Assembly (NCBI GenBank): GCA_038844785.1
Contig: JAWBRA010000020.1
Coordinates: 1 to 29,841, forward strand
Direction of reading: 5' to 3'
Length of the DNA: 29,841 bases
Origin: Candidatus Caldarchaeum sp.
GTDB taxonomy: Archaea > Thermoproteota > Nitrososphaeria_A > Caldarchaeales > Caldarchaeaceae
The notes beneath the pieces were generated by a model. The model was given only the letters and a program-made list of their open reading frames with translations, was not told where the DNA came from and did no database searches. How positions within the stretch are numbered: position 1 is the first letter of the stretch; every line of letters begins with the position of its first letter. Shown here one piece after another: positions 5,322 through 29,841 of this stretch. Position numbers and translations under genes: made by a program.

Positions 5322-5419
5322 GCGTTATGAATTAATTTTTCTTTTTTCTCGGGTTTTTTCTTAGTGTTCTGTTGCAGTTGGAGCATCTGTCTCTGCTCTC
5401 GTATGTTTTATGGCATGCG

Positions 5420-6275
5420 CTACAGAATGATTGTCCCTACTGTGGCTGAATACCTGAGGGTGTAAACGGAGGCTCTTCATAGTCTTGGTATTCCATCCTC
5501 AACCCACATGGCTATAATCTGTCTTCCGTCGTTAGCTTCGTAACTGAGCAGGTTTTTATACATGCTGGGTATTCTAAGCCTAAACCCAGCCGTAGCGTCG
5601 TATCTTCCTTTAAAATCCTCCCATGTCATAACCTGCATGATGCCATGTCTTGAGCATTTCCTGAAAGATGGTAATTTGCTCCAGTAAGCTGGTTCACAAG
5701 GGCCGCTGATACGTTTGACGTGGTTGAAACCCTAGTGGTCTAGGTCTGTGAAGAGGGTTAGAGGCCCTACCCTGCTCCCGTCATCGCCTATGAAGACTGC
5801 TTTGATTCCCAGCTCTGCCTGAAGTCTCCCCAAGGAATAGTCCCGAGAAGGTTGCGCAGTCAGGTTGAAGTATGTGTCGAGACGCTTGGATAGAACCCTG
5901 CCCCGTGCAGATGTCCAGAACCCTATAGGCCACTCATACCCCGACACCATAAGCTCTATGCTTGTTATGTTGAAGACTCCCGGCTCGAAGTTCTTCAGCC
6001 TCACCGACCCCCATCCAGCTCCTCCCGCATGTCTCCCTGCCAGCCTAGAAGGTCTGAGACAACCCTCCAAAACCCACCAGTCTCCCTGAACAAGCATGTT
6101 GTGAAAACCTCCCCTATCGAGAACCTTCTCTCACCATAGGTAAACCTGTAGCCGCTTGCAGTAATATAATAGGTGTAGTGCCATGCGTAGCCCTGTATCT
6201 CAGCTTAGCCCGTCATGTTTGTGACTGAGGCTCCGGCTATAGGCTGCTGGCTGGAGCAGTCAAGAACCCTTACAT
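5420..6275 (-). pseudogene. Decayed surface/secreted protein gene with a carboxypeptidase-regulatory-like beta-sandwich start
   Basis: Reading across frames gives VRVLDCSSQQPIAGASVT..*..ITASGYRFTYG..CLFRETGGFWRVVSD, then a frameshift into ORF 5732-6097, an in-frame TAG at 5732 and about 85 more open codons. Confidence 0.55.
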
Positions 6276-6419
6276 GAAACTTACCGTATGGGGTTCCTGA
6301 GGGGGGAGGCTCAAGCCCGTAAACCGCAGGCAGAAGAAACAGTACGGCCAGAAACAGCAAGCATCTCATCGAAGCCAGAGTTCTGGAAAGATTGTTGTAA
6401 GCGGATAATCGTCAAACAA

Positions 6420-6735
6420 TTTTTATCCAACAGCTTGTATAGCGATTGTGAGTTGCCGTCAGTTGTTATCGATAAGAATTCGGCTGCGTATAAGCTTTAC
6501 CAACCCTTAAAAAATTTTCTCTCAGAGAAAGCAAACAGAACAATCTTGATAGATTTGGAAACGCACACTAGGAAGGGTGTATTTTTAAACAATGGGAGAA
6601 TCTCGGCGATTGGCTCACTGGAGTATTCTTCCTCCGACTGTCTCTCGTTGGTTCTCGAAATACCGTAAGGGGCTTAAACTATACGGTCTAATGCGATACG
6701 CTTAACATATTCCTGATAGTTGACCATGCCATTCA
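6420..6735 (+). pseudogene. Remnant (copy 1) of a DnaQ/RNase H-like 3'-5' exonuclease gene, internally deleted
   Basis: ExoI-like ILIDLET. 56/75 aa identical to 27739-27515(-). After about 130 bp of deletion, a 32-bp exact match (6660-6691) to 27353-27384 reverse complement. Confidence 0.75.
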
Positions 6736-7010
6736 GAAAAATTCAGTCTTATATCTCCTATAAAACTATGGAACATTGCTTTAACCCTGAAATGGTCGAT
6801 GTTAAGAACACTCCCAAAACATGCCCGATATATGGCGGGTTGAATAAGCCGAAGGGGCATCTCTTCAAGTGTAGGAGGTGCGTCCTCCAAGCTGACAGAC
6901 ATCTCGTAGCCGCTTGGAACATAGCCATGAAACGTTCAATGTGGGGTGTTTTACCGTTGCTCCCGAAAGCTCTCGATGAACCTCTAATCTTAGAGGTGAG
7001 AGGGAGGGAT
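6728..7010 (+). mobile_element. tnpB: IS200/IS605-family TnpB 3' remnant
   Basis: PFRKIQSYISYK...KNTPKTCPIYG...FKCRRC..ADRHLVAAWNIA matches the TnpB Zn ribbon and RuvC-III. First CxxC is degenerate (CPIY) and the N-terminus is missing. Confidence 0.85.
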
Positions 7011-7122
7011 GAATATCTATGGTTCTGCAGAGGGTTCACAGAGCTTACAGAAAAATGGATAAACGGCCAGATGCTGAAGAAAGCAATCGATATTAACCGG
7101 ACTCGTCTCCCTCCTTACTGGT

Positions 7123-7641
7123 TTAGGTGTCGATTGTTGTCTTCAATTTAATCTTCTTTTGGATTGTTATGGCTAGGGCTACCGTCAGGAAGGCTATCAG
7201 CAAACCCTCTGCAGTGAATATTGGTGCGTCAAAGTTCGTTAAGACTCCGTAGTTATAGGGTTGCTCAAGGATTTTAAACATAAAGGAAAGTGTTGGGAGG
7301 CTTCCTATGTGGCGCTTCGATTCGAGAACCAGTTTATAGGAGTTCTGTGATAACGGCCAGAGGACTGGTGTGTAGCCTCCCGTGAAGTCTAGGATAACGT
7401 GAGACCCTAAACCAAGCGCTGAGAGGCGAAGAACAGATCTCAGCCTATAGTTCCAGGGGAGAAAAGAAACTAAAACTAGTATAATGGAGGGGATGACCGA
7501 GTGGCTTATGGATCTATGCATGTAGAAGACGTCGAAGTCTGGGAGAATGCCTAGGAGGCCTAGCAGAAGGCTCCGTTTAAGCCCTAGGCGAACCATTGAT
7601 CCAAGGGCGAAAGGTATTGCAAAGTGAAGCACAGGCTCCAT
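7123..7641 (-). CDS. Membrane-bound metal-dependent hydrolase (YdjM/DUF457 family)
   Basis: H...LPDFD...HRSISHS...SHVILD motifs with TM segments. GGAGGT upstream. Confidence 0.85.
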   Translation of the reverse strand: MEPVLHFAIPFALGSMVRLGLKRSLLLGLLGILPDFDVFYMHRSISHSVIPSIILVLVSFLPWNYRLRSVLRLSALGLGSHVILDFTGGYTPVLWPLSQNSYKLVLESKRHIGSLPTLSFMFKILEQPYNYGVLTNFDAPIFTAEGLLIAFLTVALAITIQKKIKLKTTIDT

Positions 7642-8393: not shown

Positions 8394-8740
8394 ACATCGG
8401 CACCGAGACAGTTATTTATCCCTTAAAGAGGCTCTGTTAACTTAAGGCCTTTGGCCTAGGGCTGTTTAGGGGATTGGCAGATGGGGCTCCGTGGTGGTAC
8501 ATTCCTTAGGATTGGTCTTAACATTTTAGGTATAGTTTAGGGATTGGCTGTTCCAAGCTATGGAGAGGAATGAAGGGAAGGAATACATATACCTGAGCAT
8601 GTCTTGATGTGGCTAAATTTCCACATATTCACCCAACCAGAGAAGCTACACCTGATAACAAGCATAACAAGGGTGACGGGGATGTCTTAACAGAGCCCAC
8701 GCTAGGCTCCATAACAATTATTAGGCAAGCTGAGGGTTTG

Positions 8741-9466
8741 ATGTTGGGAGGAGGTTTGGCTGTTGACCTTAAGCGGGAGCTGTTGAGGCTTTTGGAGGAG
8801 GATGAGGAGTTCCGTTATGCTGTGGCCGGCAGGATAGGGATACTGGAGATATTAAAACGTCTCGACAGGCTGGAGGAAGGACAGAACAGGCTGTGGGAGG
8901 AGGTTAGAAGCCTTAGAGAGGGGCAGGAGAAGCTGTGGGAAGGCCAGAAAAGGCTGTGGGAGAACCAGGAGAAGCTTTGGGAGAGCCAGAACAAGCTCTG
9001 GCAGGAGGTTAAAGAGCTGAAGAAGGCTTTTCATGGGCTGAGCAGAAAGGTTTCAGCGGGTTTTGCGGAGCTGGGATCTGCTTTAGGAGTAACATACGAG
9101 ATGCATGCAGCAGCATACATACAAGTCCTGCTCGAAGAGCTTGGATACCCCAGCGCAAGAGTGTCTAGGGGATGGGCCCTAAAAGACGGGGAAGTTCTGG
9201 AGATAGACATGTTCTGCGAAGAACCCCTAGTAGTAGGAGAGGTAACAACCAGGCTCAAGGACGAGAAGGAGGTAGAAAGTGAGATAACCAAGCTGCTGGA
9301 CAGGGTTGAGGCGGTCTCATCAAAATACGGAAGAAAACCTTTTCTGACAATACTGTCGGTGGGGATAGCCCCAGAAAACCTGGTAGACAGGCTGAGAGAA
9401 GAGACAGAAAAGCACGGCATCAAACTAATGCTGGGAAGAGAAATAGAAGAAGCGTTAAGCGTCTAA
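8741..9466 (+). CDS. Coiled-coil plus PD-(D/E)xK-like nuclease domain protein (DUF3782/paREP-like)
   Basis: LKRELLRLLEEDEEFRYAVAG N-terminus, heptad repeats, then E...EIDMF...VVGEVTT nuclease-like core. Start placed at ATG 8741 (TTG 8756 is an alternative). Confidence 0.8.
   Translation: MLGGGLAVDLKRELLRLLEEDEEFRYAVAGRIGILEILKRLDRLEEGQNRLWEEVRSLREGQEKLWEGQKRLWENQEKLWESQNKLWQEVKELKKAFHGLSRKVSAGFAELGSALGVTYEMHAAAYIQVLLEELGYPSARVSRGWALKDGEVLEIDMFCEEPLVVGEVTTRLKDEKEVESEITKLLDRVEAVSSKYGRKPFLTILSVGIAPENLVDRLREETEKHGIKLMLGREIEEALSV
8870..9016 (+). repeat. Seven imperfect 21-bp tandem repeats encoding heptads (L-W-E-x-Q-x-K/R)
   Basis: Units start at 8870, 8891, 8912, 8933, 8954, 8975 and 8996, e.g. 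ctgtgggaaggccagaaaagg / ctgtgggagaaccaggagaag. Confidence 0.85.
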
Positions 9467-24084: not shown

Positions 24085-24663
24085 TTACATTGTTCCCTTC
24101 GTGGATGGTGTTCCGGTTCTTTTTGGATCGTGTTCGACGGCTTGTCTTAAAGCGACGGCCAAGGCTTTGAACCCTGCCTCAACCTTGTGATGGTCGTCGG
24201 CCCCCTCCATAACTTTAACGTGGATTGTCGCGTTCATGCTTACCGTCAGCGTCTCGAGGAAGTGGTTTATCTCTGTGACAGGTATGTCTTCTACAACTTC
24301 GAGCTTTGTTTTAAGCTCTATGACGGGCTTTGGTCTTCTGACCAGGTCGACGGCGGCGTATGCCAGCGCTTCATCCATGGGGATTAAGGCGTAGCCGAAC
24401 CGTTTTATCCCCGTTCTGTCCCCCAAAGCCTTGTCGAGTGCTGCGCCTAAGACGATGGCCGTGTCCTCGACGACATGGTGCCGTAGGTCTCCGGAGGCTG
24501 AAACCTTCATGTCGACGAGGCTGTGTTTTGAAAGCGTTGCGACCATGTGGTCGAGGAACCTGTATCCCGTTGAAACGCTGCACAACCCGTTTCCATCAAG
24601 GTTTACCTCGGCTTCAACCTGCGTCTCAGCCGTAACCCTCGAAGCCCTGCCCAGCCTAGCCAA
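24085..24663 (-). CDS. hisB: Imidazoleglycerol-phosphate dehydratase
   Basis: FLDHM, HHVVED, GIKRFG...PMDEAL, DDHHKVEAGFKA. Confidence 0.96.
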   Translation of the reverse strand: MARLGRASRVTAETQVEAEVNLDGNGLCSVSTGYRFLDHMVATLSKHSLVDMKVSASGDLRHHVVEDTAIVLGAALDKALGDRTGIKRFGYALIPMDEALAYAAVDLVRRPKPVIELKTKLEVVEDIPVTEINHFLETLTVSMNATIHVKVMEGADDHHKVEAGFKALAVALRQAVEHDPKRTGTPSTKGTM

Positions 24664-24669
24664 AGCCCT

Positions 24670-25653
24670 TCAGCCCTGGCCAGAGCTTTTCTGAAGAATC
24701 TCCTCAAGCGGAAGAATTAGGTTTGGCTCGTGGACTACAAGCCCTTGGGCAAGCCTCCTCAAAGTCGGCAGAACCGTCATAAACTCGTTCTTTGAGATGA
24801 CCGTGTTGATGGCGTACCAGCCTTTTGCTGACAGCGGGCTAACCGTCGGGCTCTTGAGCGCCGGCAAAGATTTCAGAAGCGTTTCAAGGTTCTCCTCCCT
24901 CACGTTGACGAATATATGCAGTTTTTTACTGCTTTCGACAACGCCTTTCAAAAGAGTGAGGATGTCGAGAATCTTCTCACGCTTCGACGGATCTTCGTAT
25001 GACAGCTTGTTGGCTATCAGCGTAGCCGTCGACTCCATCACAGTCTCCAAAGGCTTTAGGTTGTTCTGTTCAAGCGTTATGCCTGTGGCTGAGGCGTCAA
25101 CTATCAAGTCAGCTTCCTCCGGCGGCTTCGCCTCAGTGGCGCCGAAGCTTAGATAAACACGCACCATGTCGTTATCACCCTTCCGCCACCATGGCGTTAT
25201 TATGAGGGGGTGTCTGTCGCCGTACAGCCTCTTGTAGGCAGGTGTTGATGCGACATACCTAGCCGTCGTGTTGAGATACTCTGTCGAAATCTTGAGCGGC
25301 CTACCCAGTCTCACATACTCCTCCAAATACTCGTTGAGAGTTGAATAGCTTGTTTGTTTGGGCGCCGCCACAACAAGCCTCACATAGCCGTATTCCAAGT
25401 CGAGGAGCGTAAGCACGTCGGCCCCGGTCTCTCTGACCCAGTCCACGCCGGAAATACCTATATCGTATGCTCCGCCTGCAACAAGCAGCGGAATCTCCTG
25501 AGGCCTCAAAATCTTCACCTCGATGTCTTTGTCTTCGACAACAGGCCTGTAGGTTCTCTCAACACCTTTGAGCCTCAGCATAGCCTTCGCTAGAATCTCC
25601 TGGGTCCCCGCCTCCAGAGAGCCTTTCGGAATCGCAAACTTAACTTTCGCCAA
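24670..25653 (-). CDS. hisG: ATP phosphoribosyltransferase, long form
   Basis: AIPKGSL, RPQEIP, DIGISGVDWVRE, SFGATEAKPP, TGITLEQNNL, C-terminal regulatory domain LPALKSPTVSPL. Confidence 0.95.
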   Translation of the reverse strand: MAKVKFAIPKGSLEAGTQEILAKAMLRLKGVERTYRPVVEDKDIEVKILRPQEIPLLVAGGAYDIGISGVDWVRETGADVLTLLDLEYGYVRLVVAAPKQTSYSTLNEYLEEYVRLGRPLKISTEYLNTTARYVASTPAYKRLYGDRHPLIITPWWRKGDNDMVRVYLSFGATEAKPPEEADLIVDASATGITLEQNNLKPLETVMESTATLIANKLSYEDPSKREKILDILTLLKGVVESSKKLHIFVNVREENLETLLKSLPALKSPTVSPLSAKGWYAINTVISKNEFMTVLPTLRRLAQGLVVHEPNLILPLEEILQKSSGQG

Positions 25654-25841: not shown

Positions 25842-27099
25842 TTATCGGTTTATTCTACTTATTATTGGTTTCTCCTCATCATAGTAACTAGATTCGTATA
25901 GTTTGGACGCGTGTTTAACTGACATCCCCAGTTCATCAGCTATCAGACGCGTTACTTCCGCCTTTTCTCTGATTTTTAATTGTTCTGCGACTTTTTCAAG
26001 TTTCTTAATCTCAACCTCGGCGTCGTCACTTCGAAGCAAGCATAGCCGCCACTCTAGACTGTAAACTCTGTCCAGCCTTTTCCATATCTGGTCGCGCGCC
26101 TCCACTTTCATTTCCATTATGATGTCGTATACATAGTCCGTGAAAACATATGTATTGATGTCGAGTCCATTCTCCAGCGCACCCTTTACGTAAATCAGCG
26201 GTAACGGGGTGGCGACTTCGCTCAAGGTTCTCGTTTTAGGTCCTTGGTTGGACCAGTTGCTGCAAAACTTTCTCCACTGGCATTTTGTGCAGTAGTCTTT
26301 TTTCGGCGACTCCGGCTGGAAACCCATAAGCCCTAGCTGTTTAGATTCCCAAATATCATTCAGCATGTTCTTCAGCTGGAATACTTTCCCAACTTCTTCA
26401 ACCAAACCATGTCGTGGATAAAGCAGTACTGTGGATATCTTTTCGGCAGGGAGTGTTTCCGGCCGGGGAATGAATGCTTCCCCCTCCCTTCTCCTACCCA
26501 AAACAAGCCCTCCCATCCTGCTTAAAGTGTTGTAGAACGCTGTCTGATAGGAATCTAACGACGATGCTTCTCTCTCCACATTCTTTACCTCCGCAACCAA
26601 ATAACTTCTTGACCTCTCCGACTTGAAGATTAGGTCTGGTATGACGTGTGATGGTAGGGCGGGCCATTTCACATCGCATCTACCAACCACCTTCAGCCTC
26701 CCGTACTCTTCCCCAAGTATAGACGCAATCTTAACTAGGCCGACGACATCTCTTTTCACAATGTTCTGAACCAGATCACTCGAATGGTGTAGAGGTCTTC
26801 CCAGCACCTGCTCAGACACAAGCTTTACCTGTTGTTTCAAATACGGTAGGCGTTCTGCAACCTCGGCGACGTCTCTTTCACAGAGGTGCCGATGTCCATT
26901 GCTTTCTCCGAACGGGTGACTGACGGAATTACCTTCTCCGCCAGCCTTTCACCAAGCTTTCCTACGACAGCCGGCTGAACAGGCGGTTTTTCCGTCTTTC
27001 CAGCCTGCGTAACCTCAGAGCCATCGTCTTAAAGGCTAGGTTTTTCGGACACCTGAGAAAATCGTAGACATCCCACCACGTAACGGTGAAAGAACCCAT
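25842..27099 (-). pseudogene. Cas4/AddB-like Fe-S PD-(D/E)xK nuclease, frameshifted near its 5' end
   Basis: ATG 27099 gives MGSFTVTWWDVYDFLRCPK (first Cys). After indels near 27022 and 26877 it joins ORF 25842-26840, which has IPDLIF, VAEVK, YQTAFY and CTKCQWRKFC. Confidence 0.8.
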
Positions 27100-27100
27100 T

Positions 27101-27750
27101 TCAAAGCTCCCTTAAGAGCTGTTCATAGAGTTCACGGCTGGCTTTCAGGTCACACTGAAGATTTTTTGAATTTCCGCCTGCTCTTCCTCCACATATCATA
27201 AATCCATCTAGCTTTCTTAGACGATCCTGACTCTTGCTCCAACCTCTTACAGTTTTCATCAAACTTGTCTAGATTAAGGGCTATTTCGCTTAATTTTTTA
27301 TAACCGTAGAATGGCGCTAGGTCAATTATCAGGGCTGTGCTAAGCATATCTCTTAGACCGTATAGTTTAAGCCCCTTACGGTATAGAGTGTACTTCTGTG
27401 AAAGAAGAGGGATGTCATAGTAGCGTATACCATAGCCCACGACAACATCCGGCGCTATATCGAAATGCTTGTCGAACCTACTAAGCAGCCTCTTCTCGGA
27501 TTCGTTATTATTTTTTCGAGAACCAACGAAAGACAGTGGGAAGAAGAATACTCCAGTAAGCCAATCGCCAAGATTCTCTCATTTTTTAACAATCGGCCCT
27601 TCCTAGTGTCCGTTTCCGAATCTATGAAGATTGTTCTGTTTGCTTTCTCCAAGAGATAATTTTTTAAGGGTTGGTAACGCTTATAGGCAAACGAATTCTT
27701 ACCGACAACGTCTGACAGCAAATCACAATCGCTATACAACCAGCTGGATA
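27101..27750 (-). pseudogene. DnaQ/RNase H-like (PolB-exo-like) 3'-5' exonuclease, split by two frameshifts
   Basis: ExoI IFIDSETD, then SEKRLLSRFDKHFDIAPDVVVGYGIRYYDIPLL (ExoII), then LQCDLKASRELYEQL (ExoIII-like). Frames change at A6 runs 27511-27516 and 27162-27167. Confidence 0.8.
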
Positions 27751-27779
27751 AAAGCGTAACTGTCTTTGGCTCTTTCTAC

Positions 27780-28225
27780 AAGGGCTTGGAGGTTGCTTCA
27801 GGGATGCTCAAGCCCGGAACACCTGTGAAAACTGTTGTAGAGCTTGTAAACATAGCTGTCAGGGTTGTCAACGAGCTTGGCTCACCGATGGATTCAGACG
27901 TAGACCTAGTGGGAGGAGGAAGGACTATCGCAAGAGCTTCAGGCTCCGAGGTTAGGTTTGACAGGGTTCCTTCGGGATTATACACTGTCAGAGTAACACT
28001 GGATCTAAGCAGGTGGAGGTACAGATAAGAGCAGAGCAGGAGGATACGAGGATAACAGTAACGCTTCCAATAGCCTCCGTATTCCTGAACCAGCCAATCT
28101 CCCTGTCAGACATGTACATGGTTGCGGCGGTGTTGACGCCGTTGATTGCAGTAGCCGCAGCGCAGGTGATACATCCCAGAGTTAGAGGCAAACTCTCCAT
28201 AAAACTGTCTAGGGAACATGGCTGA
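27780..28225 (+). pseudogene. 3' fragment of a surface protein gene with C-terminal TM anchor, frameshifted
   Basis: VRVVNELGSP...FDRVPSGLYTVRVT continues in another frame as GSKQVEVQI...MYMVAAVLTPLIAVAAA. No signal peptide or clear start. Confidence 0.65.
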
Positions 28226-28264
28226 AACACATTAACCCATCCCACCACAAGCTTTTATCTAACC

Positions 28265-28270
28265 TTTAAA
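28265..28270 (+). promoter_or_regulatory. TATA box upstream of the Lys-rich small ORF
   Basis: TTTAAA 20-25 nt before ATG 28290. Confidence 0.5.
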
Positions 28271-28289
28271 TCATATCCACGGAGATAGT

Positions 28290-28433
28290 ATGGCGAGGAA
28301 GAAAAAAGCTAAAACAGCTAAAAAGAAGACGGTCAAAAAGCGAAAGGCTGGAAAACCCAAGAAAACAGCAGCTCCGACTGCGCCGGCAGAGGCTGCACCA
28401 GCTCAGGAGGCTGGAGCCCAGCCCACAGCGTAG
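28290..28433 (+). CDS. 47-aa Lys/Ala/Pro-rich basic peptide (histone H1 tail-like); absent from the ORF track
   Basis: MARKKKAKTAKKKTVKKRKAGKPKKTAAPTAPAEAAPAQEAGAQPTA, with clean ATG and TAG, upstream TATA and GGAG. Confidence 0.75.
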   Translation: MARKKKAKTAKKKTVKKRKAGKPKKTAAPTAPAEAAPAQEAGAQPTA

Positions 28434-28509
28434 GCTCGAAGCCTTGCTGAGGTTTTCAACCCTCTCAGCTAATGCGGAGTAGCAAGTGATTGGACTGGGT
28501 GACAAAAAA

Positions 28510-29094
28510 TCAAGCAGTATGTGTGAGCCCCTCATGTTTAATCATTCGTTTGACCTGTTTCACGCTGGCTGGCGGTATTATTCCAAACTCTCCGACGAAC
28601 TCTTCAGGGTTAAGCTGTGTGAAGCTTACTCCGGCTTCAACAAAAGCCCTCTCAAGCTTTTCAAAATCCTTCCAGTGGACTGATGTTACGAGCTTTATCC
28701 TCATGTCGCTGTATCTCAGGAAAACGGTGACGGGAACATGTGCTTCGAACCAGAGGGGTATGTGAAGTATCGAGAAACCATTGTGTATCTCCGGCTCACT
28801 CGACCATCTTACTCCAACAATCTGCCACCATGGTGTGAACAGGTCTCCGCAGCCCAGCCTGTTGTACCAAACCCTGATTCTCTCACGCCTCAAAACTCTG
28901 ATAACCTCTGGGACCGGGAGACAGGCTAGGGAGGCGGCTACCGGCATGAAAAGCCACGGGTCTAATTCGTAGCTGTTGAGCGCGTGCGCCGTGAAACCCG
29001 CAGCCAGCGCGACTATGATTATCTCGGCCATCAGGTACATCGTTCTGTTGGGTAAGGGTCCTCTGACGCTGGTTCTTAGAAAACCCTTGTCCAC
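28510..29094 (-). CDS. Two-TM hypothetical protein with a soluble C-terminal domain
   Basis: Two hydrophobic helices. Probable GTG start at 29094, one base after the upstream stop. Confidence 0.65.
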   Translation of the reverse strand: MDKGFLRTSVRGPLPNRTMYLMAEIIIVALAAGFTAHALNSYELDPWLFMPVAASLACLPVPEVIRVLRRERIRVWYNRLGCGDLFTPWWQIVGVRWSSEPEIHNGFSILHIPLWFEAHVPVTVFLRYSDMRIKLVTSVHWKDFEKLERAFVEAGVSFTQLNPEEFVGEFGIIPPASVKQVKRMIKHEGLTHTA

Positions 29095-29095
29095 C

Positions 29096-29841
29096 TCATC
29101 TGACGACCGTCTCAGGAGCATCAACTATCACCTCGTGTCTTTCGTAGAACAGGCCCGGGGATAGAAGCCTATCGTTACCCATCAACACCCTGTCTGCCAT
29201 TGTCAGGACCACTATCCAAGTTCTTTCACCCCCTGCTGAAGCTATCCTGAAACGGTTACCGCCAACCCATCTAATGGTTATGATAGCGTCGTCGTAGTCC
29301 ATGCCCCCCTCCTCGGAGCCGTATGGACATTTAGCCGTGTCCTCGAGCATGACCACCGACTCGTTTGCCCTGTTGTAGGTCAGTCTATCGCCTTTGTCGT
29401 ATTCCACGACCTCCCTCCTCAGGTAGGCGGGGTCGAATGACCATGTGATGTTCCACACGATGTATTGCATGGTGTAGCTCTTCTTGCAGCCATGCTTGTT
29501 CTCCGTGGCGGTTACTATGAAGACGAGGGGAGGCGGGGGATACGCCTTGGTTGTGTTGATGTGCCAGATGAAGCCCACTATGTTGGCTGTGATGGTTGCC
29601 TTAAGCACGACTGCTTCGTCGAAAGTTTCGAGACGCATCACCTTCATGTAGTCAATCCTGTAGTCAGGGTCCACGTAGAAGAGGTATAGGTGCGGGATTA
29701 ACGCGAAGAACGTGGGGTTGGGCGGCGGGGGAAGGCCTGTCAGCTCCTCGAACGCTTTTTCAAGCCCGCGGTCGGCGACGTTCTTCAGGAACCTCTTGTA
29801 GTGCGCGGAGTCTATTATCTCCGGCACCTTCCTCGACACCG
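29096..29841 (-). CDS. Hypothetical protein, 5' end outside the window, with a DUF4114-like acidic motif
   Basis: Open to the window edge. MLEDT...GGMDYDDAII resembles the ED...D.D.ND motif of extracellular Ca-binding-type domains. Confidence 0.65.
   Translation of the reverse strand, partial: VSRKVPEIIDSAHYKRFLKNVADRGLEKAFEELTGLPPPPNPTFFALIPHLYLFYVDPDYRIDYMKVMRLETFDEAVVLKATITANIVGFIWHINTTKAYPPPPLVFIVTATENKHGCKKSYTMQYIVWNITWSFDPAYLRREVVEYDKGDRLTYNRANESVVMLEDTAKCPYGSEEGGMDYDDAIITIRWVGGNRFRIASAGGERTWIVVLTMADRVLMGNDRLLSPGLFYERHEVIVDAPETVVR

Follow-up and report, generated by a model that had tools for sequence, protein, structure and literature searches.

A pseudogenised nuclease gene pair beside hisG in a Candidatus Caldarchaeum genome and its intact archaeal counterparts

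The DNA analysed here (the window) comprises all 29,841 nucleotides of contig JAWBRA010000020.1 (contig C20) of a Candidatus Caldarchaeum genome (GCA_038844785.1, hereafter G000; 1.74 Mb, 57 contigs, 95% complete). Close to one end, on the minus strand, it carries the remains of two adjoining genes, A and B, and both are dead pseudogenes in G000. We think it probable that positions 27774-25846 are a dead version, cut short at the 3' end, of an operon of two genes that is horizontally mobile in hot-spring archaea and has the role proposed below. That the module is a relic, and that A and B belong to the PolB-exonuclease-like and Cas4/Dna2-like nucleases, respectively, we hold with high confidence. 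A first-pass annotation made from the nucleotide sequence had taken this segment for a stand-alone, mobile defence or end-processing module in which a DnaQ-like exonuclease is coupled to a Cas4-like Fe-S nuclease.

The relic and the intact gene pair

Three-frame translation of the minus strand recovered gene A in three pieces (27739-27455, ~27512-27150 and 27262-27101) and gene B in three more (27099-26962, ~27013-26843 and 26840-25842). All of the motifs quoted in the first-pass annotation are present in these frames: in A, the ExoI D-S-E-T, the PDVVVGY....YDIP block and the Q-C-D....LY block; in B, the N-terminal Cys of R-C-P-K, P-D...E-V-K, Q-x3-Y and C-x2-C-x5-C, followed by a helical C-terminal region. 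The TGA of A (27103-27101) lies one base from the ATG of B (27099-27097), exactly as annotated. The leader upstream of A was copied along with the module and may hold a putative T-rich TATA-like box.

Intact copies of both genes occur in two other genomes: G003, which is another species of the same genus (loci L005/L007), and G210, a Thermoproteota genome from another family of the phylum (locus L008). In each of them A and B are adjacent and 1 nt apart at a TGA-A-ATG junction, and DNA alignment shows the TGA-N-ATG arrangement to be kept in all three genomes. A and B are a real, conserved gene pair, as the two-gene reading of the window had supposed.

Three-way DNA alignment of the window copy with the intact G003 and G210 copies placed the lesions. 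The four indels suspected at first pass are frame-breaking deletions: -1 nt at 27517/27516 and -2 nt at 27163/27162 in A, the latter with loss of the ExoIII Tyr codon, and -1 nt at 26988/26987 and -13 nt at 26865/26864 in B. Two further deletions are in frame (-3 nt at 27459/27458 in A and -9 nt at 25889/25888 in B). Homology runs only to 25846, which leaves B short of its final ~58 codons, with unrelated sequence in their place; the lost codons include two motifs conserved in the family, E-P-W and P..S...W..W. The length of about 419 residues originally assigned to B is that of the truncated relic; intact B has 481 residues in G003 and 473 in G210. Compared with the G003 copy, window B has 46 non-synonymous and 29 synonymous codon differences and the intact G210 B has 72 and 76, a weak sign of relaxed constraint in the window gene. 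Neither a DNA search nor the family profile found an intact copy of the module in the 95%-complete G000. Given the four frame-breaking deletions and the 3' truncation relative to the intact copies, the module is not a working system in G000, and the earlier reading of it as one has to be given up.

Could the breaks instead be sequencing or assembly errors, or be bypassed by recoding, so that the genes function in the organism? Three of the four lie in or beside short A runs, which are typical sites of homopolymer error. One break, however, is a 13-nt deletion, unrelated sequence has taken the place of B's 3' end, and the flanking housekeeping genes (hisG, hisB and others) are uninterrupted. 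The window sequence is held by hot-spring metagenome runs, and Logan contigs from four runs in four studies (one of which may be the source sample of the window) match it gap-free over each lesion, with each lesion covered by three or four of the four runs. Since one recoding signal cannot account for four breaks of differing size, and programmed frameshifting was rejected in view of these sizes, one of them 13 nt, plus the truncation, we consider functional genes at this locus extremely improbable.

Table 1. Features of the window that bear on the relic, with strand and basis of assignment
Feature	Position	Strand	Basis
Whole two-gene relic	25846..27774	-	blastn and three-way DNA alignment; corresponds to L007:7320-9277 of the G003 island, 90.6% identity
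Gene A pseudogene, predicted PolB-exonuclease-like DEDDy 3'-5' exonuclease	27101..27739	-	translation, PF03104, alignment to intact copies
Gene B pseudogene, predicted four-Cys PD-(D/E)XK nuclease, Cas4/Dna2-like, ending in a helical domain	25842..27099	-	motifs, alignment, ortholog model
A/B junction, TGA-A-ATG	27097..27103	-	one-base gap; identical in both intact copies
Upstream leader copied along with the module	27740..27774	-	homology begins exactly at the left border of the G003 island
hisG, intact, directly downstream of truncated B	24670..25653	-	comparison with relatives
Second, more decayed gene A fragment	6421..6725	+	DNA search; N-terminal 240 nt (6421-6660) and a 66-nt middle piece (6660-6725), 88-89% identity
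TnpB C-terminal fragment (Cas12f1-like TNB domain), abutting the second A fragment	6720..7151	+	PF07282, E = 1.6e-10

Two predicted nucleases

Protein A (214 residues in G003, 234 in G210) is predicted to be a stand-alone 3'-5' exonuclease of ~210 residues that belongs to the PolB-exonuclease clan and is of the DEDDy type. The intact G003 protein matches PF03104 with 33 bits and the middle piece of window A with 26.8 bits (cut-off 23), and A matches PF10108 weakly in the Pfam search. By inspection, the intact orthologs contain ExoI D-x-E, ExoII Y-D and ExoIII Y-x3-D. The ExoII block aligns with those of Pol delta and Pol II, and the ExoI D-x-E-T is invariant in an alignment of A with the neighbouring exonucleases of other B loci.

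For B, an AlphaFold2 model of an intact ortholog (pLDDT, the predicted local distance difference test, 92.8; pTM, the predicted template modelling score, 0.88) suggests two parts. Residues 1 to ~290 are modelled as a PD-(D/E)XK fold of the Cas4/Dna2/AddB type with a four-Cys putative metal or Fe-S site, and the last ~190 residues as a helical domain with a long coiled-coil hairpin. When residues 1-290 were compared with known structures, the fold matches (VIA Z) were Dna2 (10.9), AdnA (10.7), ACE1 (9.8), RecE (9.3) and AddA (8.9), followed by MGME1 (8.3), the Cas4 protein SSO0001 (8.2), Exo5 (8.0) and type I-C Cas4 (7.9); Foldseek ranked the same nuclease families first (E about 1e-2). Residues 325-401 form the long helical hairpin, for which the fold matches were to coiled-coil arms only, and the remainder of the C-terminal domain is helical in the model. 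An alignment of 27 B-family sequences shows no variation at D160, E175, K177, Q190 or Y194, and these motifs are also found in the window copy. Across the same 27 members the N-terminal Cys and C275 are near-invariant. The window copy shares with both intact orthologs (G003 and G210) the full four-Cys pattern, one N-terminal Cys plus C-x2-C-x5-C.

Despite its fold, B scores below the thresholds of the models for related nucleases: 14.6 bits versus 22.7 for PF01930, 21.1 versus 65 for TIGR00372 and 18.7 versus 22 for PF12705. An exhaustive profile search (1.84 billion entries) returned 121 representative clusters at E <= 1e-3, 79 at 1e-10 and 48 at 1e-30. Because the B-family profile brought back only these 121 representatives, B is, on profile evidence, a small separate family with no Pfam model and is not the Cas4 superfamily. 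Searched against the sequences of solved structures, the profile gave a weak PD-(D/E)XK match to BpuSI (E = 0.0039) and otherwise coiled-coil noise, and the ESM Atlas yielded generic PD-(D/E)XK/Cas4-like clusters only. PF11074, PF13482 and the TM0106-type models were not among the Pfam/NCBIfam hits of either A or B at E <= 1.

Mobility and genomic settings

The pair looks mobile, as the first-pass annotation had proposed, and also accessory and recently transferred. The window module is 90.6% identical to L007:7320-9277 in G003, whereas hisG of the same two genomes is only 72-73% identical, and this difference points to recent transfer. Within the order, 3 of 61 genomes gave a B match (G000, G003 and, weakly, G009), and the profile found B in 5 of the 401 genomes of the phylum, G000 included, two of these being weak partial matches. 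In G003 the pair lies in a 4.8-kb island (L007:7320-12096), which also holds a GmrSD gene and a gene for a 209-residue protein with no family match. The former is a full type IV restriction gene (PF03235 + PF07510; PADLOC HEC-05, E = 2e-41); the island has no integrase, capsid or replication gene. The corresponding empty site is seen on contig C6 of G000, where the flanks of the G003 island are joined without the 4.8-kb segment. Insertion sequence (IS) fragments adjoin the pair in G210.

In four relatives, hisH, hisI and hisF follow directly after hisG; in G000 these three genes are on contig C47. Since the relic lies between hisG and the contig end, where hisH follows in relatives, we place it within an insertion that spans 4.2 kb or more. 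The remaining open reading frames (ORFs) of this insertion (27786-29839) gave no Pfam match. The histidine cluster of G000 is split, with hisB and hisG at window positions 24085-25653 and hisH, hisI and hisF at C47:3781-5172.

Scans of the whole window for repeats and tRNAs found neither a CRISPR-like array nor a tRNA. The Cas1 matches of G000 are on contigs C43 and C10, with none on the window contig; the annotated absence of an array, and the placing of the pair outside any cas operon, both stand. In G003 and G210 Cas1 is also encoded away from the pairs, and no cas gene lies next to either intact pair. The window does contain tandem 21/63-nt repeats (8864-9004), which fall within the ORF at 8609-9466 and are a coding repeat, not a CRISPR array.

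The window holds a second, more decayed fragment of gene A (Table 1), which has an internal deletion and pairs with 27514-27753 in the window's only long inverted repeat. Before it comes what looks like a broken gene (5838-6369, minus strand; matching in three separate pieces), a paralog of a secreted CarboxypepD_reg-like protein of ~195 residues. The A fragment abuts the TnpB fragment, and the three together make up a small gene graveyard. The secreted protein has about five paralogs, found also on G000 contigs C6, C8, C36 and C7. An MRC-type secreted-protein gene was tried as a marker of the orthologous site of the second A fragment and rejected as uncertain because of the roughly five paralogs in G000. 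A ~400-bp stretch with no long ORF occurs at window positions 5340-5608 and, downstream of the MRC-type gene in G003, at L007:6100-6508; about 40 copies of it, at 67-97% identity, are spread over many G000 contigs. It may be a repeat family resembling miniature inverted-repeat transposable elements, or another non-coding repeat family.

To follow the pair beyond these genomes, we used 61 B loci: 59 metagenome loci from a scan with a 13-row B alignment, plus L007 and L008. With the narrow A-family profile, none of the 59 metagenome loci gave an exonuclease. A wider exonuclease profile placed one within 2.6 kb of B at 7 of the 61 (L007, L008, L019, L023, L024 and the identical pair L042/L043), and PF13482 is matched above the cut-off by three of the seven. 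In a maximum-likelihood tree built from 42 B proteins of full length (those shorter than 380 residues were left out), B adjoins PolB-exo/RNase_H_2 exonucleases in five separate places. The exonuclease label requires five changes on this tree; 36 of 500 shuffles performed equally well, and the label is therefore not clustered. Genomes carry about one to three stand-alone genes of the PolB-exo clan (five genomes checked); with so few, five independent adjacencies are by our estimate, made with no formal test, far more than chance would give. Adjacency of B to such an exonuclease holds at these five tree places and fails as a rule across the B family.

In 30 of the 59 metagenome loci, which form one lineage, B is flanked by rpl3 and by a DUF2283-ferredoxin gene, and no exonuclease is in the vicinity. 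For the non-rpl3 loci we scanned the neighbours within about 3 kb of B (Pfam, PADLOC). HerA (DUF87) and NurA are beside B at L017:7546-10309. At L018:239-3541, HerA, a 439-residue protein with no family match and B follow one another on the same strand, and a distant B relative in G144 has a weak NurA-like gene nearby (E = 0.0059, below the cut-off). At L025:1154-5952, B is convergent with a prokaryotic Argonaute (pAgo) gene 443 nt away (PADLOC pAgo_I, E = 2.9e-142); an Ago-associated Schlafen/AlbA_2 protein is encoded beside pAgo and an HD-domain gene on the other side of B. As for the other loci, L021 has PDC-M41A/B near B; L026 has a TmtA-like ATPase, a Cas3/PbeA-like helicase and a fragment of IS1595; L038 a small Cas4 together with a UvrD-type helicase; L042 an HD/dGTPase-like gene and a fragment of IS110; L019, L029 and L059 PIN genes; and L050 a Prim-Pol gene. 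At L057:586-3705, an integrase and a CcdA-like gene precede a 207-residue protein encoded directly upstream of the B relative. By eye this protein has Cas4-like motifs (D-L-V, E-V-K, C-x2-C), and neither Pfam nor PADLOC gave a hit for it. Exonucleases that adjoin B relatives show weak matches to the PADLOC CAS-associated DEDDh model (E about 1e-6 to 1e-7), and no Cas1 or Cas2 hit was found among the scanned neighbours. The neighbours that we count as defence-like are GmrSD/HEC-05 in G003, the pAgo of L025, PDC-M41A/B in L021, the TmtA-like ATPase and helicase in L026, and HerA in L017/L018. A defence-island setting of the pair finds support in G003, with its GmrSD gene, and does not extend to the rpl3/ferredoxin loci, whose context does not resemble a defence island.

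Proposed role and relation to known systems

Cas4, Dna2, Exo5 and AddB thread and cut 5' single-stranded ends or flaps. By analogy with these families, single-stranded 5' ends or flaps would be the substrate of B, and 3' ends would be removed by A. The two proteins may act together on the same DNA end with opposite polarity, in the manner of the single-chain fusions of Cas4-like and DEDD domains discussed below. Translational coupling and the existence of such fusions suggest a shared DNA end, and the combination of the same two domain types in COG2251/DUF2779 supports functional coupling; by this analogy we lean slightly towards joint action. B's coiled-coil tail may serve in docking or in oligomerisation. 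The complex predicted from intact A and B scored 0.00 against a mark of 0.32, which speaks neither for nor against binding.

We propose, tentatively and at somewhat less than an even chance, that the intact Caldarchaeum-type pair degrades or processes foreign DNA as an accessory defence-island gene pair. A defence role is favoured by its accessory, island-borne nature, by the GmrSD neighbour and by the rapid decay. A more far-reaching version seems doubtful to us: that the intact pair is an undescribed, horizontally exchanged archaeal immunity or anti-plasmid module of two opposite-polarity nucleases with no helicase, in which the B tail would dock the exonuclease, HerA/NurA or Argonaute, depending on the lineage.

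Several observations weigh against a defence module built from A and B. A has very few relatives, a word-indexed search of 5.8 billion clusters having given 3 hits, and its AlphaFold2 model, built from an 8-row alignment, reached a pLDDT of only 39.5, leaving its fold to be argued from sequence. PADLOC-DB 2.0 has no model that matches A and only weak Cas4 models that match B (best E = 1.9e-5), so a match to a described defence system did not emerge. The C-x2-C-x5-C triad is typical of the Caldarchaeum branch, and many other members have C-x4-C-P-H-H; because the B family as a whole does not keep the C-terminal Cys triad, an Fe-S cluster cannot be taken for granted. An exonuclease neighbour is confined to the seven loci named above, and L017, the nearest metagenomic relative of Caldarchaeum B, has none within 6 kb. 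The rpl3 lineage places B in a core-genome setting. Many of the PADLOC neighbour hits are generic domains (HerA, UvrD-type helicase, HD) and are no proof of a defence system, and activity is a prediction for every member of both families. Finally, PMC13621843 reports the fused DUF2779 protein of the minimal Mycoplasma JCVI-syn3.0 as quasi-essential, which points to housekeeping rather than immunity.

There are three other possibilities for the intact pair. The one that survives best, although we judge it unlikely, is that it does housekeeping work in DNA repair or end processing. It would then trim 5' and 3' ends much as Dna2, Exo5 or MGME1 would alongside an exonuclease of the proofreading type, and its loss in G000 would reflect simple redundancy. 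The best structural matches of B are to repair nucleases (Dna2, AdnAB, AddAB, MGME1 and Exo5), HerA lies beside B in L017 (with NurA) and in L018, the rpl3 context is conserved, and the quasi-essential Mycoplasma fusion fits as well. However, the pair is patchy, with B in 3 of 61 relatives, it shows the marks of recent transfer and of a GmrSD-bearing island, it is dispensable to judge by two dead copies in G000, and other B relatives have pAgo, PDC-M41, an integrase or IS elements as neighbours.

In archaeal viruses, Cas4-like nucleases serve the virus's own replication, recombination or genome-end maturation. The pair might likewise belong to a virus, plasmid or other mobile element and serve that element in one of these ways. 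Its mobility and island location would fit, as would the IS fragments by the G210 pair, the TnpB fragment by the second relic, the integrase and CcdA-like gene in L057, the Prim-Pol gene in L050 and the weak match of A to the phage DNA polymerase exonuclease family phrog_403 in PHROGs (E = 5.8e-5). Yet none of 165 pattern matches in IMG/VR viral contigs was confirmed as a B relative, none was present among 50,697 phage and 72,556 plasmid records, PHROGs gave no match for B, and the G003 island lacks the integrase, capsid and replication genes of such an element. We rate this explanation as quite improbable.

Cas4 and DnaQ-like enzymes both trim prespacers in known CRISPR systems, and Cas1 is encoded elsewhere in G000, G003 and G210; a CRISPR-adaptation accessory encoded apart from the cas genes, to which the weak CAS-associated DEDDh matches of the exonuclease neighbours would also be suited, is nevertheless very unlikely given that no cas gene or array occurs in the window or beside the intact pairs, that scanning B's neighbours in the non-rpl3 loci brought up no match to Cas1 or Cas2, that B falls below both Cas4 thresholds and that its profile recovers 121 representatives and not the Cas4 superfamily.

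B resembles CRISPR Cas4 (PF01930, TIGR00372) in its PD-(D/E)XK motifs, Q-x3-Y and one-plus-three Cys, and in fold (rmsd, the root-mean-square deviation, of 4.9 over 156 aligned residues for SSO0001). It differs in its subthreshold scores, in being more than twice as long, in having no cas neighbourhood and in a C-terminal triad that the wider B family does not conserve. The nuclease domains of Dna2, AdnAB, AddAB, Exo5 and MGME1 provide the best fold matches (237 residues aligned with Dna2, rmsd 5.3). Unlike them, B has no helicase domain; it shares 8-15% identity with them and is a stand-alone archaeal protein with a C-terminal domain of its own.

ACE1 is described as an Argonaute-associated enzyme of the Cas4 family in PMC12094033. 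B resembles it in fold (217 of 269 residues aligned), and the B-family locus L025 adjoins pAgo. The pair differs from the pAgo-ACE1 systems (APACE1), where a Cas4-family nuclease is encoded together with a long-A pAgo, in that no pAgo is near it in the window, G003 or G210, in the much greater length of B and in having an exonuclease as partner. Among stand-alone proteins of the PolB-exonuclease clan (PF03104/PF10108/PF13482), A keeps the DEDDy motifs and a PF03104 match above the cut-off, and it is set apart by its size of only ~210 residues with no polymerase part and by its own very small family.

The closest parallel is with COG2251 (TM0106-type) and PF11074/DUF2779, which PMC3985635 describes as uncharacterised fusions of a Cas4-like (DUF83) domain to a PolB-exo/DEDD RNase H-like domain; MMSYN1_0389 is a DUF2779 fusion of an uncharacterised family according to PMC13621843. 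The link to TM0106-type proteins drawn at first pass was apt, and with such fusions already in print in these two sources, if uncharacterised, the claim of an undescribed system was too broad. In the limited literature searched we found no description of a split archaeal pair of this kind, although supplementary neighbourhood data on solo Cas4 may bear on its novelty. We regard the pair as a split archaeal form of a known, uncharacterised domain combination, the split form itself being new.

The window relic matters little by itself; it leads to an intact, compact operon in a sister species and to the unstudied B family. The locus is also a dated example of the speed at which hot-spring archaea acquire, duplicate and destroy genes for accessory nucleases. 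Proteins that fuse the same two nuclease types, described from sequence analysis only and biochemically uncharacterised, occur in many bacteria, and one of them is the product of the gene reported as quasi-essential in the minimal Mycoplasma. The pair combines the same two nuclease types in two genes with the exonuclease first and a 1-nt gap, whereas the fusions are one polypeptide with the Cas4-like part first. A matches PF03104 rather than PF13482, which exonuclease neighbours of other B relatives do match, and B carries the additional helical domain of ~190 residues with its coiled-coil hairpin. For biochemistry, a thermostable version made of two proteins would offer a convenient way in. 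On the more far-reaching version given above, which we find doubtful, the pair would be the split counterpart of the widespread COG2251/DUF2779 fusions, and solving it would assign a function to the whole group in bacteria and archaea.

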